Shown here: piece after piece, positions 140 through 6,359 of the stretch
How the letters are laid out: the number at the start of each line of letters is the position of its first letter
Position numbering within the stretch: the first letter of the stretch is position 1
DNA from: a virus
Taxonomy: Duplodnaviria; Heunggongvirae; Uroviricota; Caudoviricetes
IMG/VR virus record: IMGVR_UViG_2711768014_000005
Reading direction: 5' to 3' (one strand)
DNA: 6,359 nt
Translations under genes and position numbers: made by a program
The notes under the pieces: generated by a model
Databases searched by the model: none
Told to the model about the DNA's origin: nothing
The model's input: the letters and a program-made list of their open reading frames with translations, nothing else

Positions 140-509
140 CTCAGCACCGGTATCTGAGTCAACGTTTTCTCTACTGGGTCATTTCCGATACGCCCTGCCT
201 GCTGACAGGCTTTCATCACATCTGAAAATATAGCACCCTGACTGATACTGTAGTACCTAAGGTTCCAGAAACTGTGATGTATCCGGCACAGAAAAGCCCC
301 TCCGGAGAGGGCTGGAGAGTGGCGCTATGTGCCATTGCATGATGCCGGGTGCCTCCCGGTGAATTCAGTACCAGCACCTGAATCCGCGATTATCCCATAT
401 ACCTACTCGCTGATTGCCCCTCCGCACAGGGGGATTCACCATGCCAGTTTCTTTTAACAAACTCCCCGCAAAACAGACAACTGTCAACCGTCTGAATTGT
501 GAGACATTT

Positions 510-549: not shown

Positions 550-626
550 TGGCGCGTTGTACTGGATTCGAACCAGTGACCGATTGCTTAGAAGGCAATT
601 GCTCTGTCCGGCTGAGCTAACAACGC
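550..626 (-). tRNA. argO: tRNA-Arg (anticodon TCT)
   Basis: Minus-strand sequence GCGTTGTTAGCTCAGCCGGACAGAGCAATTGCCTTCTAAGCAATCGGTCACTGGTTCGAATCCAGTACAACGCGCCA folds as a cloverleaf: acceptor GCGTTGT/ACAACGC, T-arm ACTGG-TTCGAAT-CCAGT, anticodon loop CTTCTAA, encoded CCA. Gene name assigned from position in the ileZ-argN-argO trio I recall from Stx-type lambdoid phages. Confidence 0.85.
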
Positions 627-639
627 ATGATGCAGATAA

Positions 640-716
640 TGGACCGCCATCGGGGACTTGAACCCCGCGCAGCCAGCTTCGAAGGCTGGCGCTCTTTCCT
701 GATGAGCTAATGGCGG
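640..716 (-). tRNA. argN: tRNA-Arg (anticodon TCG)
   Basis: Minus-strand sequence CCGCCATTAGCTCATCAGGAAAGAGCGCCAGCCTTCGAAGCTGGCTGCGCGGGGTTCAAGTCCCCGATGGCGGTCCA: acceptor CCGCCAT/ATGGCGG, anticodon stem CCAGC/GCTGG with loop CTTCGAA, T-arm CGGGG-TTCAAGT-CCCCG, encoded CCA. D-loop is slightly atypical. Gene name assigned by order. Confidence 0.78.
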
Positions 717-723
717 TATGTGA

Positions 724-799
724 TGGTGGCCCTTGCTGGATTTGAACCAGCGACCTGGCGATTATGAGTCGCTCGCTCTCACCACTGAGCTAAAGGGCC
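724..799 (-). tRNA. ileZ: tRNA-Ile2 (anticodon CAT, lysidine-type; formally also compatible with Met)
   Basis: Minus-strand sequence GGCCCTTTAGCTCAGTGGTGAGAGCGAGCGACTCATAATCGCCAGGTCGCTGGTTCAAATCCAGCAAGGGCCACCA: acceptor GGCCCTT/AAGGGCC, anticodon loop CTCATAA, encoded CCA. Closely resembles E. coli tRNA-Ile2 (ileX) as recalled. Confidence 0.85.
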
Positions 800-2470: not shown

Positions 2471-3076
2471 TTACCTAGTTACCTTTTTTAACTGNNNNNN
2501 NNNNNNNNNNNNNNNNNNNNNNNNNNNNNNNNNNNNNNNNNNNNNNNNNNNNNNNNNNNNNNNNNNNNNNNNNNNNNNNNNNNNNNNNNNNNNNNNNNNN
2601 NNNNNNNNNNNNNNNNNNNNNNNNNNNNNNNNNNNNNNNNNNNNNNNNNNNNNNNNNNNNNNNNNNNNNNNNNNNNNNNNNNNNNNNNNNNNNNNNNNNN
2701 NNNNNNNNNNNNNNNNNNNNNNNNNNNNNNNNNNNNNNNNNNNNNNNNNNNNNNNNNNNNNNNNNNNNNNNNNNNNNNNNNNNNNNNNNNNNNCTGCCGG
2801 TTTTATTTCTGCCGGGAGTTTTCTTAACGCCGCCACGCGATCACACCGACTGAGTGCATATTCTGTCAGCAATTCTGTTGCCCGCTCTCTGTCATTCATA
2901 CTAATGCCCATTTTCCCAAGGAACGCAGAAACCCCCATCTCAGCCCGATTCTGTGTCATGCCCTGCGCGGCCATCACATCAGTGATACTCAGCGCATCTT
3001 TCGACGTTGAGGCCGATGCATCAGTCAGGCCGGGGGATTTTGGGGAGTAGTATTTCGGTAAATCTTCCAGTTTCAT
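2471..3076 (-). CDS. Q: Late-gene antiterminator Q (lambda Q family); middle masked by N run
   Basis: N-terminal 94 aa MKLEDLPKYYSPKSPGLTDASASTSKDALSITDVMAAQGMTQNRAEMGVSAFLGKMGISMNDRERATELL... parallels lambda Q (MRLESVAKFHSPKSPMMSDS...SGTDVMAAMGMAQSQAGFGMAAFCGK...), and the C-terminus ...KVTR* matches lambda ...AVTR*. Frame is preserved across the 299 N. ATG overlaps the rusA stop (ATGA). Confidence 0.85.
   Translation of the reverse strand: MKLEDLPKYYSPKSPGLTDASASTSKDALSITDVMAAQGMTQNRAEMGVSAFLGKMGISMNDRERATELLTEYALSRCDRVAALRKLPAEIKPAXXXXXXXXXXXXXXXXXXXXXXXXXXXXXXXXXXXXXXXXXXXXXXXXXXXXXXXXXXXXXXXXXXXXXXXXXXXXXXXXXXXXXXXXXXXXXXXXXXXXQLKKVTR
2495..2793. other. Run of 299 N (masked or unresolved sequence) inside the Q gene
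   Basis: Contiguous n characters. Length is frame-compatible with the flanking Q coding sequence (283 nt upstream + 299 N + 21 nt + stop = 201 codons). Confidence 1.
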
Positions 3077-3453
3077 TTTTTGACCTGCCCTTCAAGCATT
3101 ATGGGATAAATCTTCACCCCCAGACGTCCACCAGATACTGGCTGAGCACGAACGATATTGATTTCATCAAACTGCTCATCGTCCATTAGCAACCCCGCAT
3201 GCGTCAGCGCATCCAGCGGCGCTTTCAGAATATTGTCCAGGTCACGGCGGCGCTTATCCGGTGGTTCTGCAATAATTTTTATTGCCAACCTTCCGGACAG
3301 GCTTAATTTCAGCCGCTGCTGGCGAACAATAAGCGCCACTGCCCGGCGATAACGCTCCCCGGCTTTTGATACAAAATATGTGCTGCCACGACGACGCCAG
3401 TAAGTGTTCACCGTCGGCGGGTAAGGTAAAACAAATTCTATGCGCTCGGTCAT
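3073..3453 (-). CDS. rusA: RusA-type Holliday junction resolvase (crossover junction endodeoxyribonuclease)
   Basis: 126 aa with the RusA signature ...PPDKRRRDLDNILKAPLDALT... and N-terminal LPYPPTVNTYWRRRG matching the E. coli RusA pattern. Start ATG directly follows the stop of the upstream ORF; its stop overlaps the Q start. Confidence 0.9.
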   Translation of the reverse strand: MTERIEFVLPYPPTVNTYWRRRGSTYFVSKAGERYRRAVALIVRQQRLKLSLSGRLAIKIIAEPPDKRRRDLDNILKAPLDALTHAGLLMDDEQFDEINIVRAQPVSGGRLGVKIYPIMLEGQVKK

Positions 3454-4989: not shown

Positions 4990-5020
4990 AAAATAAAAAC
5001 AAAAACCCGCCGAAGCGGGT
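4990..5020 (-). terminator. Rho-independent terminator at the 3' end of the hok transcript
   Basis: Minus strand reads ACCCGC-TTCG-GCGGGT followed by TTTTTGTTTTTATTTT, about 70 nt downstream of the hok stop. Confidence 0.55.
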
Positions 5021-5089
5021 TAAGTGTGGGTGCATTGAGGATGCCTGCCCCATCAGAGGTGGCGAGGGATTTCTCCCCCGCCTGGTCTC

Positions 5090-5245
5090 TTACTCCTCAG
5101 GTTCGTAAGCTGTGAAGACAGCGACCTCCGTCTGGCCGGTTCGAATTCGTACCTCGCAGAGGTCTTTCCTCGTTACCAGTGCCGTCACTATGACGGTTAA
5201 ACAGATGACGATCAGGGCGATTAACATCGCCTTTTGCTGCTTCAT
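5090..5245 (-). CDS. hokD: Hok/Gef-family membrane toxin (HokD/RelF-like), 51 aa
   Basis: MKQQKAMLIALIVICLTVIVTALVTRKDLCEVRIRTGQTEVAVFTAYEPEE has the Hok-family transmembrane segment and conserved C-terminal region (compare Hok ...[28 protein letters not shown]). Start ATG at 5245 preceded by AAGGAG at 8 nt. The 70-aa ORF in the track is an in-frame upstream extension. Confidence 0.85.
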   Translation of the reverse strand: MKQQKAMLIALIVICLTVIVTALVTRKDLCEVRIRTGQTEVAVFTAYEPEE

Positions 5246-5456
5246 AGCCTGCTTCTCCTTGCCTTTCGGCACGTAAGAGGCTAACCTAGATTTGCCGTTC
5301 ATAGATTGAGCCTCAGATTAATGTTAAGCGTCTTGCCGGACGCGTAATGTTAACTGGGGCTTTTCTCTATCTGCCTTTTGGTGTTCATGCCTGAGACAGA
5401 TAGCCTCAAGCACCCGCTGCAATTCTACTTAACTCTCCTTTTCCCGCAAACCGTTT

Positions 5457-5540
5457 TTATCCCCAGCGGCAAATCGAATACACCACCAGCGCCACCGCCA
5501 TCGCAATTCCTACCGTTGTTAATGCTTCAGGCCAGGTCAT
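5457..5540 (-). CDS. Possible 27-aa hydrophobic micro-ORF
   Basis: [27 protein letters not shown] has a single predicted transmembrane stretch. Its ATG overlaps the TGA stop of the 114-aa ORF (ATGA). Below the ORF-track size cutoff and may be fortuitous. Confidence 0.25.
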
Positions 5541-5881
5541 CGTAAAATATCCTCCACGCTTATCAGTCCGTTCCGCTCCAGATAACTCATCGCCTTATCC
5601 GGTAATTTGCAGTCTGGCTTCGCTTTCCTCAGTTGCCAGGTTAACTGCTTTACCAGCATGGTTAACTCATCGACCAGACGCTGATATCCCACTGGTTTGT
5701 ATTCATGCAATTTACCGGCTGGCTCTGCTGCCAGCGATACCAGTGCGATTTCCAGAACAGCAATATCCATCTTATATGTGCGGATGATGTCATGGTCGAT
5801 TGTGCCCGGTATGCACAGTCTCTGTGCTTCAATAGTCTCCTCTGCGTGAGCTATTAACTGCTCTCTGGTAAAAGTCGTCAT
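5537..5881 (-). CDS. Hypothetical protein, 114 aa (N-terminal domain paralogous to the upstream 55-aa ORF)
   Basis: [23 protein letters not shown]...[13 protein letters not shown].... ATG overlaps the stop of the 55-aa ORF (ATGA), preceded by GAAGGGG. No family recognisable by eye. Confidence 0.6.
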
Positions 5882-6045
5882 GCCGTAGCCCCTTCTTGAT
5901 ATTTTTCAAACCAGAACACAACCGGCTCTGCTTCCAGCGATGCCAGCGCAATCCGTGCCAGTTCCATTTGTTCACCACGGGTAAGCCCGTTTTCAAGCGG
6001 GTTTTTAATGAACAATTCAATACGTTCTTTGGTAATAGTGGTCAT
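5878..6045 (-). CDS. Hypothetical small protein, 55 aa (paralog of the N-terminus of the 114-aa ORF)
   Basis: Not in the ORF track (under 60 aa). ATG at 6045 preceded by AAGGAG with a 7-nt spacer; [55 protein letters not shown]. Shares the MTT start and the IAL-SL-AEP motif with the 114-aa ORF. Confidence 0.45.
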
Positions 6046-6055
6046 GTGTTACTCC

Positions 6056-6359
6056 TTAACCCGCAGTGCTTTCAACTGATGAGGGGAACAAAATCTTTTC
6101 ATCAAACCCTGCATTCATATCATGAACAGCAACACACCAATCCATCGACGAACGATTATCAAGAGCCTCCATGATTTCATCCATGCGGCGTAGGTCATAC
6201 AGGTAAATGCTTTTATCGCCAATGGTGTAAAAGCCAATTTTTTTCGGTGATGGATGAGGTGTACTGGCAATAGCGGACACTACCATTTGTTCTTTTTTTA
6301 AGCAGCCATCTGATGATATTTTTCCCTGAAGGCTGCCGGGGAGATATTCCCCAGACGAG
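6056..6359 (-). CDS. 3' end of an unidentified gene (partial; start lies beyond the right edge)
   Basis: Frame open from the window edge to TAA at 6056..6058; ...SAIASTPHPSPKKIGFYTIGDKSIYLYDLRRMDEIMEALDNRSSMDWCVAVHDMNAGFDEKILFPSSVESTAG*. Same strand as and contiguous with the downstream operon; its stop overlaps the ribosome-binding site of the 55-aa ORF. First 105 nt are the right IR arm. Confidence 0.55.
   Translation of the reverse strand, partial: SSGEYLPGSLQGKISSDGCLKKEQMVVSAIASTPHPSPKKIGFYTIGDKSIYLYDLRRMDEIMEALDNRSSMDWCVAVHDMNAGFDEKILFPSSVESTAG
6255..6359. repeat. Right arm of the perfect 105-bp terminal inverted repeat (partner 1..105)
   Basis: Exact reverse complement of 1..105; divergence begins at 6254. 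Confidence 0.95.

Follow-up and report, generated by a model that had tools for sequence, protein, structure and literature searches.

Three small genes upstream of hok in a Qin-like lambdoid prophage: a probable block of mosaic Ea-type early accessory genes

The virus record IMGVR_UViG_2711768014_000005 (Caudoviricetes) is a stretch of 6,359 nucleotides, referred to here as the window, and represents a segment of a Qin-like lambdoid prophage that harbors replication genes, small open reading frames (ORFs), hok, a DUF968 gene, RusA, Q, tRNAs and a methyltransferase. This analysis deals with three small ORFs that lie on the minus strand at 5457-6045 (main positions are window coordinates), directly upstream of hok in the nin region, with the replication genes on one side and Q on the other. 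The first ORF (6045..5878) encodes an acidic protein of 55 amino acids (aa) with a pI of 4.76, the second (5881..5537) a protein of 114 aa, and the third (5540..5457) a hydrophobic peptide of 27 codons with a grand average of hydropathy (GRAVY) of 1.13. An earlier interpretation made from the letters of this DNA (the sequence-only reading) had described these genes, their coordinates, their overlaps and the character of their products correctly, and had proposed that together they form a candidate toxin-antitoxin (TA), abortive-infection or superinfection-exclusion module. The explanation favored here is that these are mosaic early accessory genes of the Ea type, which form a block of three parts with separate histories, and that the block is not a TA pair; we assign this explanation a probability of around 0.7.

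The three ORFs are joined by ATGA overlaps at both of their junctions (GGCATGACG and CGATGACC), such that the ATG of the 27-codon micro-ORF overlaps the stop of the 114-aa ORF. The 55-aa ORF has a Shine-Dalgarno (SD) sequence, AAGGAG, at 6057..6052 on the minus strand, which overlaps the TAA stop of an upstream 76-aa ORF, 6 nt ahead of the ATG, as the sequence-only reading had noticed. The SD of the 114-aa ORF is GAAGGGG, and that of the micro-ORF is GGAGG (5555..5551, minus strand), located within the last codons (VEDILR) of the 114-aa gene; both are suitably spaced. Among complete E. coli genomes, 241 have the same block, as do dozens of viral contigs, and because it recurs to this extent it is not a chance arrangement. 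In the Qin prophage of K-12, relB-relE immediately precedes hokD, after which come rem, ydfU and Q; the earlier interpretation was right about this position, and its impression that neither larger protein resembles RelB or RelE is borne out at the level of sequence, profile and fold.

The 55-aa protein matches profiles PHROG 3323 (1e-19), PHROG 60 (4e-18) and PHROG 660, all of unknown function. Residues 1-40 of EaA from phage P22 are approximately 93% identical to it, and the 5' part of its ORF shares 92% nucleotide identity with the P22 eaA/eaI junction. This EaA-type N-module occupies codons 1-41 (6045..5923, minus strand) and ends in the sequence ASLEAEP. The remaining codons, 42-55 (5922..5881, minus strand), have a different source, as they correspond to the C-terminus of an HNH endonuclease whose gene is found ahead of the 114-aa gene in Stx phages. 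In the Stx phage ArgO145, for example, a 122-aa HNH endonuclease gene is followed, with the same ATGA overlap, by a 114-aa gene with one substitution, and the C-terminal tail of the HNH protein is identical to the tail of the 55-aa ORF. In 20 of 85 related loci, homology to the window ends at 5922-5925, exactly at the ASLEAEP codons. To judge by these comparisons, the 55-aa ORF is a chimera of the EaA N-module (residues 1-41) and the last 14 codons of the HNH gene, a reading that fits the match of its residues 31-54 to the HNH profile PHROG 2118.

The 114-aa protein belongs to PHROG 660 (8e-43; unknown function). Its N-terminal part, residues 1-54, is 33% identical to the 55-aa protein (BLASTP, E=1e-5), and the two proteins fall into common PHROG families, which upholds the earlier claim that they are paralogous. 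An AlphaFold2 model built from a 45-sequence alignment has a pLDDT of 83 and predicts a hairpin of two helices (6-26 and 30-51), a low-confidence linker (52-65) and three further helices (66-86, 93-103 and 109-113). The predicted helical-hairpin module spans 5881..5720 and the three-helix C-module, residues 68-114, spans 5680..5540, both on the minus strand; the consensus of the latter is ELTMWVKRLxxSLRKAxPDSKLPxxAMDYLxRxGLISVEDVLR, and when modeled alone it returns a pLDDT of 86 and a pTM of 0.65. Structure searches returned generic helical matches only, and a sequence search of the PDB gave chance-level matches (E>=0.13).

Both modules are widely shared. One or the other is present in 238 protein homologues from one search and in 291 representatives at 50% identity from another, and each keeps its terminal position in family proteins that range from 50 to 389 aa. 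The general build is an N-module ending in (I)ALASLEAEP, followed by an optional and highly variable middle, which may be nothing at all, DUF551 or another domain, and in many members by the C-module at the C-terminus. DUF551 is carried by other members, including P0066 and P22 EaA, as well as by many of the genes upstream of other micro-ORF copies, and the Pfam family Ead_Ea22 (PF13935) also occurs on 7 of 77 proteins that bear this C-module. Recombination at the linker is seen directly in one homologue (P0031, 101 aa), in which the N-module of the 55-aa protein passes, at ASL(E/A)AEP, into the C-terminal half of the 114-aa protein. Two other homologues (P0001 and P0002) are fusions of the 55- and 114-aa proteins, and one (P0011) is a fusion of the 114-aa protein to the 27-aa peptide. 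Three traits characterize Ea-type genes, and all are found here: a homologous N-module (MTTITKE...), which both larger proteins possess; a modular build in which middle and C-terminal parts are exchanged, with recombination at the linker; and a location in the early operon of a lambdoid phage, either exo-xis or nin. On sequence grounds, then, the 55- and 114-aa proteins belong to the mosaic Ea family, whose accessory genes lie in the exo-xis and nin regions of lambdoid phages, and the 114-aa protein appears as the minimal family form, with the N-module joined to the C-module.

The description of the cassette as unrecognized holds in part. The products are functionally uncharacterized: PGAP labels the 55- and 114-aa products 'hypothetical', neither has a Pfam or NCBIfam match, and PADLOC-DB returned no families for all four proteins at E<=1. 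They do, however, belong to known mosaic families, as seen in the P22 EaA N-terminus and in PHROG 660, 3323 and 60.

The comparison with P22 EaA and the other 'ea' genes (PHROG 60/660/3323; 'Eaa protein' in UniRef) is the closest available. These are likewise early-operon accessory genes with MT-start codons that overlap the upstream stop, and they share the modular build with its ASLEAEP linker. P22 EaA, however, is a protein of 317 aa that ends in DUF551, whereas in the window the N-module stands almost alone (55 aa) or upon a different C-module (114 aa); moreover, the P22 genes lie in the exo-xis region and the present block in the nin region. Ea22 of lambda and Stx phages is similarly a mosaic early protein, with an N-terminal segment, a helical region and an exchangeable C-terminal domain (PMC10834534), but the window proteins are without its long coiled coil, and the known pro-lysogenic activity is that of Ea22. 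A further relative is found in K-12 itself. YfdT of the CPS-53 prophage has the N-module in common (MTTFT.KELI...EIALVSLEVEP; 39% identity over 54 aa), and the start of its gene overlaps by one base the stop of yfdS, the DUF551 gene ahead of it (yfdS-yfdT, locus 6512-7179 of L292). Unlike the genes of the block, yfdT has a different C-terminal half and is not followed by a micro-ORF. YfdT has been described as a protein without a defined motif, and the one phenotype known for it is seen in multicopy, where YfdT, or alternatively YfdS, overexpressed together with YfdQR inhibits the initiation of replication (PMC4776307).

The order and sizes of the genes, their ATGA coupling and the acidic nature of the first product are all reminiscent of a TA operon, the block occupies the relBE slot, and another addiction module, hok/sok, adjoins it. 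A type II pair in which an acidic 55-aa antitoxin neutralizes a 114-aa toxin, so as to replace relBE both functionally and positionally, is nonetheless highly improbable. The context of 86 loci with the 114-aa gene is informative in this respect: the 55-aa ORF and hok are both present in 47, the 55-aa ORF only in 15, hok only in 2 and neither in 22. The 24 loci (~28%) that lack the 55-aa ORF, with an HNH gene or other sequence in its place, still carry a 114-aa gene that is 99-100% identical, and the natural existence of such genes already suggests that the 114-aa protein causes no growth defect by itself. The two ORFs are, furthermore, paralogous within one modular family and recombine into single proteins. 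Since the 114-aa gene is unchanged in the absence of the 55-aa ORF, and since natural fusions of both exist, they are not a type II TA pair. No toxin or antitoxin family appears among the Pfam, NCBIfam and PADLOC matches of the block products, and the 114-aa protein is modeled as a simple helical protein of two domains, with no toxin-like fold match. The likeness to relBE-hokD of Qin is thus confined to small coupled ORFs in the same slot directly upstream of hokD, with a pairing that, unlike that of relBE, is non-obligate.

The wider proposal of a three-gene TA, abortive-infection or exclusion module linked to hok is not supported either, given a 55-aa ORF that is chimeric and not always present and products that have no toxin, antitoxin or defense match. 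It is unsupported for the 55/114 pair and could apply only to the 27-aa peptide. The idea of a cassette exchange at a prophage hotspot is reasonable, in that occupation of the relBE slot fits the exchange of mosaic modules. The trio is conserved in part: the block as such recurs in the E. coli genomes mentioned above, but its 55-aa member is dispensable.

A different role for the 55-aa protein would be that of a functional regulator, consisting of an N-module only, which hetero-oligomerizes with the N-hairpin of the 114-aa protein or with other Ea proteins, of the same or of a co-resident phage, and thereby modulates them. The ORF is intact in >1000 contigs, no other SD of the trio is as good as its own, the adjacent 114-aa protein has a paralogous N-module, and proteins of the Ea22 type oligomerize via N-terminal and coiled-coil parts (PMC10834534). 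Against this, the ORF is chimeric and dispensable, and its near-identical copies yield no selection signal. A regulator of this kind is unlikely, and the 55-aa ORF is better viewed as a probable by-product of recombination.

The third gene has a different distribution from that of its neighbors. Its product has one predicted helix with an 18-residue hydrophobic core. With a 96-nt query, the micro-ORF was found in 1634 of 5426 complete E. coli genomes (~30%), at 3107 places, of which 163 are on plasmids. Searches with tblastn located it in 88 phage records, among them those of 933W, VT1/VT2-Sakai and Min27 and of two lytic rV5-like phages, Av-05 and TH18. They also located it in 180 plasmids, most of which are ~95-kb replicons of E. 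coli and Salmonella that are non-mobilizable. It is almost never annotated. At 84 nt, it is shorter than the 90-nt minimum applied by Prodigal. In all 40 records among the matches listed, no annotated feature of its own lies under the match, and the few GenBank records that do annotate it use names such as 'prophage protein' or 'bacteriophage protein'. The best Pfam/NCBIfam matches, KdpF (E=0.12) and DUF883_C (E=0.029), are both below the cut-off. The peptide sequence is absent from the full text and supplements of two small-ORF studies (PMC5597208, PMC11188072), and no ribosome-profiling or proteomic record of it was present in the literature searched. An apparent in-frame fusion of the peptide to DUF551 was rejected, as the 121-185-aa representatives of its 90% clusters lack the peptide and the fusion is a clustering artifact. 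For some 'partial' DUF551 records, the frame translated seems to be that of the micro-ORF, a clustering or naming artifact that could mislead automated annotation.

The conservation of this micro-ORF extends to all the elements expected of a small gene. Diverged copies, at ~80% nucleotide identity, keep exactly 27 codons, as in 933W and Av-05 (MTWPEAFTTVGVVMAVAFAVYSVCRWG). A pattern scan that fixed 11 internal residues only returned 211 matches; the stop falls at codon 28 in 209 of these, codon 1 is ATG or GTG in 203, and an SD-like core is present at -18..-3 from the ATG in 210 of the 211 copies, behind at least 4 unrelated upstream gene ends. In every case, the start codon either overlaps the stop of the gene ahead of it or directly adjoins that stop. 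There are 89 distinct upstream proteins, 73% of which have the Ea N-module, and they end in the C-module, DUF551 or other tails. At one locus (L024), homology begins at the ATG of the micro-ORF, behind unrelated upstream sequence. The ORF, its start, its stop and its ribosome-binding site are hence all retained across diverged copies and unrelated flanks.

The pattern of substitution points in the same direction, with some qualification. In-frame pN/pS lies between 0.17 and 0.83 across comparisons, while the other frames have stops or ratios that are mostly >=1. The copy in Av-05 differs from the micro-ORF at 18 nucleotides and 6 amino acids (randomization P=0.00035), with a pN/pS of 0.17-0.29 (p<=0.007). 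Av-05 (NC_025830.1, L295 1201-1281) is a lytic rV5-like myophage of the Vequintavirinae, in which an Ea-family gene is followed by the unannotated micro-ORF, an arrangement seen also in vB_EcoM_TH18. This arrangement in a lytic phage, with many synonymous differences in the Av-05 copy, shows that modules have been exchanged between temperate and virulent coliphages.

An interpretation in which the micro-ORF is non-coding, and its conservation reflects a nucleotide-level element, such as a recombination linker or a regulatory part of hok, or simply recent ancestry, can draw upon its being too short for standard gene callers and unannotated in RefSeq. In a set of 60 distinct sequences, the unconstrained codons require at least 19/17/22 changes at the three codon positions, with no strong third-position excess; pN/pS among temperate lineages is 0.4-0.8 and individually non-significant, only the Av-05 comparisons reaching significance; and ~8% of the copies behind C-module genes are frameshifted or extended. 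This interpretation is decidedly improbable when set against the retention of start, stop, length and SD at ~80% identity and in unrelated flanks, the excess of silent differences in the Av-05 copy, the stops in the other frames, the ~60% of neighborhoods in which the micro-ORF occurs without hok, and the fact that the sole in-frame length variant is a 6-nt insertion. The micro-ORF is very probably a real gene for a single-pass membrane micro-protein and, as judged from the same comparisons, a separate conserved module that is mildly new and almost never annotated. As a category it is not new, since tens of thousands of conserved hydrophobic intergenic micro-ORFs have been predicted in Enterobacteriaceae (PMC11188072).

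What such a micro-protein might do is less certain. It could be the active element of the region, expressed early by the phage as a small toxin of the membrane or as a factor for superinfection exclusion or host takeover, with the Ea genes merely providing translation; its size is like that of the type I toxins TisB, DinQ and ShoB. The hydrophobic helix is conserved over temperate phages, phage-plasmid-like replicons and a lytic rV5-like phage, the peptide gene acts as a module of its own, with 89 different genes seen upstream of it, its strong SD is conserved, and hok is adjacent in 42 of 114 neighborhoods, including that of 933W. However, no type I-like antisense RNA or structured leader was found for the micro-ORF, there is no PADLOC match, and many small membrane proteins are regulators and not toxins; the very abundance of predicted conserved micro-ORFs (PMC11188072) means that conservation alone is no sign of a toxin or defense role. 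Such an active peptide is unlikely. In size, single hydrophobic helix and poor annotation the 27-aa peptide resembles KdpF, AcrZ, TisB and DinQ, but it has no sequence relationship to them, is phage-borne and coupled to an upstream gene, and has no known antisense RNA.

A bolder suggestion is that the micro-ORF represents an undescribed and widespread family, with the consensus M-x-WPEAF-x3-G-x9-YS-x3-W, that has a specific activity at the host envelope. The family would be carried by ~30% of E. coli genomes, 933W, VT1/VT2-Sakai, the ~95-kb phage-plasmid-like replicons and rV5-like phages, with translation always coupled to that of the final gene in an Ea-type array; its activity could be phage exclusion, early depolarization or takeover, or cooperation with the adjacent hok/sok. 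This suggestion is tentative, and on balance doubtful.

Several observations weigh against viewing the region as a mosaic Ea-type block of three parts. Neither the 55- nor the 114-aa protein matches Pfam Ead_Ea22 (PF13935) at E<=1, and neither matches DUF551 (PF04448), so that the 'Ea family' label rests on PHROG profiles and common modules. Nearly all copies of the 55- and 114-aa genes are 99-100% identical, and as a consequence selection upon them is not measurable. The 55-aa ORF, intact in so many contigs, could be functional instead of a by-product. The sample of viral contigs is possibly redundant and consists mostly of E. coli, and the temperate substitution ratios of the micro-ORF given above are to be counted on this side as well.

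The hok/sok locus (5090..5449, minus strand) lies outside the cassette. A promoter-like element, TTGCGG-16 nt-TAGAAT, is discernible by eye at 5449..5422 on the minus strand; its -35 fits the consensus at 3 of 6 positions, and its -10-like TAGAAT hexamer (5427..5422) lies 7 nt ahead of the Rfam match to the sok/hok leader (RF01794, 112 bits), which runs from 5415 to 5240. A mok-like frame of 70 aa together with hok (Pfam HOK_GEF, 3e-23) occupies 5302..5090, and a terminator follows at 5021..5004, just beyond the hok/sok range, all on this same strand. At 5000-5086 (minus strand), over the terminator hairpin, Rfam gives weak matches to isrK (25.8 bits, E=0.017) and rsmX that stay below threshold and are probably resemblances of structure only.

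The sok/leader begins at 5415, past the micro-ORF stop at 5457, and the cassette is not part of the hok transcription or regulatory unit. Homology to the window is lost at 5456/5457, the micro-ORF stop codon, in 26 of 85 related loci; hok is absent from ~40% of 114-aa gene contexts; and in ArgO145 and PhiR49_2 the 114+27 unit lies beside xis/int without hok. By these signs, hok/sok is a self-contained neighbor that is independent of the cassette. Unlike in relBE-hokD, hok here keeps its own sok/leader, and for this reason it is not the third gene of an operon. The exo-xis region of the reference Stx2 phage 933W (AF125520.1, L293 1501-1581) contains L0139, the unannotated micro-ORF and then the annotated sokW/mokW/hokW, with a micro-ORF/hok junction sequence that is the same as that of the window. 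As this junction belongs to an exo-xis region in 933W, the block in the window is taken to be of the exo-xis type, placed in the nin region.

Taken together, these features suggest how the block may have arisen and what its parts may do. In this Qin-like prophage, an Ea-type block of the kind normally found between exo and xis would occupy the nin region, at the place that relBE takes in K-12. The 55-aa ORF would be what is left after an EaA N-module was joined at ASLEAEP, the recombination junction of the family, to the tail of an HNH gene. The 114-aa gene would combine the N-hairpin, a flexible linker and a 47-residue three-helix C-module that is common to hundreds of Ea-family proteins, and the 27-codon ORF would be an independent conserved micro-gene, placed behind many genes of the Ea family, for a peptide that spans the inner membrane once. 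The three ORFs would be read from the early rightward operon, and with an SD of its own and a stop/start overlap for each ORF, translational coupling is possible.

The exo-xis genes are expressed early, are mosaic and affect the lysis-lysogeny decision, and Ea22 forms a tetramer, its C-terminal domains being exchangeable (PMC10834534, PMC8614690). By analogy with that tetramer, the N-hairpin may act as an oligomerization module and the C-module as the part that binds a partner. We infer, again by analogy, that the micro-protein could be an inner-membrane peptide of N-out/C-in orientation, with its short acidic N-terminus outside and its Arg-Trp-Gly end inside, acting on a membrane component of the host. 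As for other exo-xis genes, those of the block may modulate either host physiology or the lysis-lysogeny decision in early development.

The remainder of the window and some of the database records merit brief comment. The 76-aa ORF upstream of the block (6056..6286) belongs to PHROG 1714, and 51 of 85 related loci lose homology at a breakpoint at 6253-6254, which means that its N-terminus is unlike that of the usual 87-aa form, as annotated in other E. coli. A cluster of genes for three tRNAs (Arg-tct, Arg-tcg and Met-cat; 550-799, minus strand) and a full-length match to the small RNA STnc100 (124 bits; 284-473, minus strand) are located downstream of the region of the Q antiterminator and the methyltransferase, as in late regions of the Stx type. 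A run of 299 N, masked or unassembled, at 2495-2793 falls inside the Q antiterminator gene (2471..3076), which consequently is not readable in full. The sole locus from species-representative genomes is a 1.8-kb contig in a metagenome-assembled genome of 'Segatella copri' (L085, JAJXBQ010000377.1), with a 114-aa gene that is 100% identical, and a record named 'Actinobacillus phage vB_Apl-pPE4' (PP818812.1) has a 93% nucleotide match across 38% of the query. These appearances of an E. coli-type cassette in records of unrelated hosts probably reflect mis-binning, contamination or host mis-assignment.

A position beside hok and in the relBE slot does not make a TA or defense module, and a false lead is thereby removed. 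The block would instead belong to the ordinary mosaic 'dark matter' of lambdoid early regions. It also illustrates clearly how Ea modules may recombine by way of a conserved linker (ASLEAEP) and ATGA junctions, giving rise to truncated ORFs that mimic partner genes. Finally, a rarely called 27-codon gene for a predicted membrane micro-protein, present in medically important Stx phages, is a candidate for those who study small proteins and the interactions of phages with their hosts.

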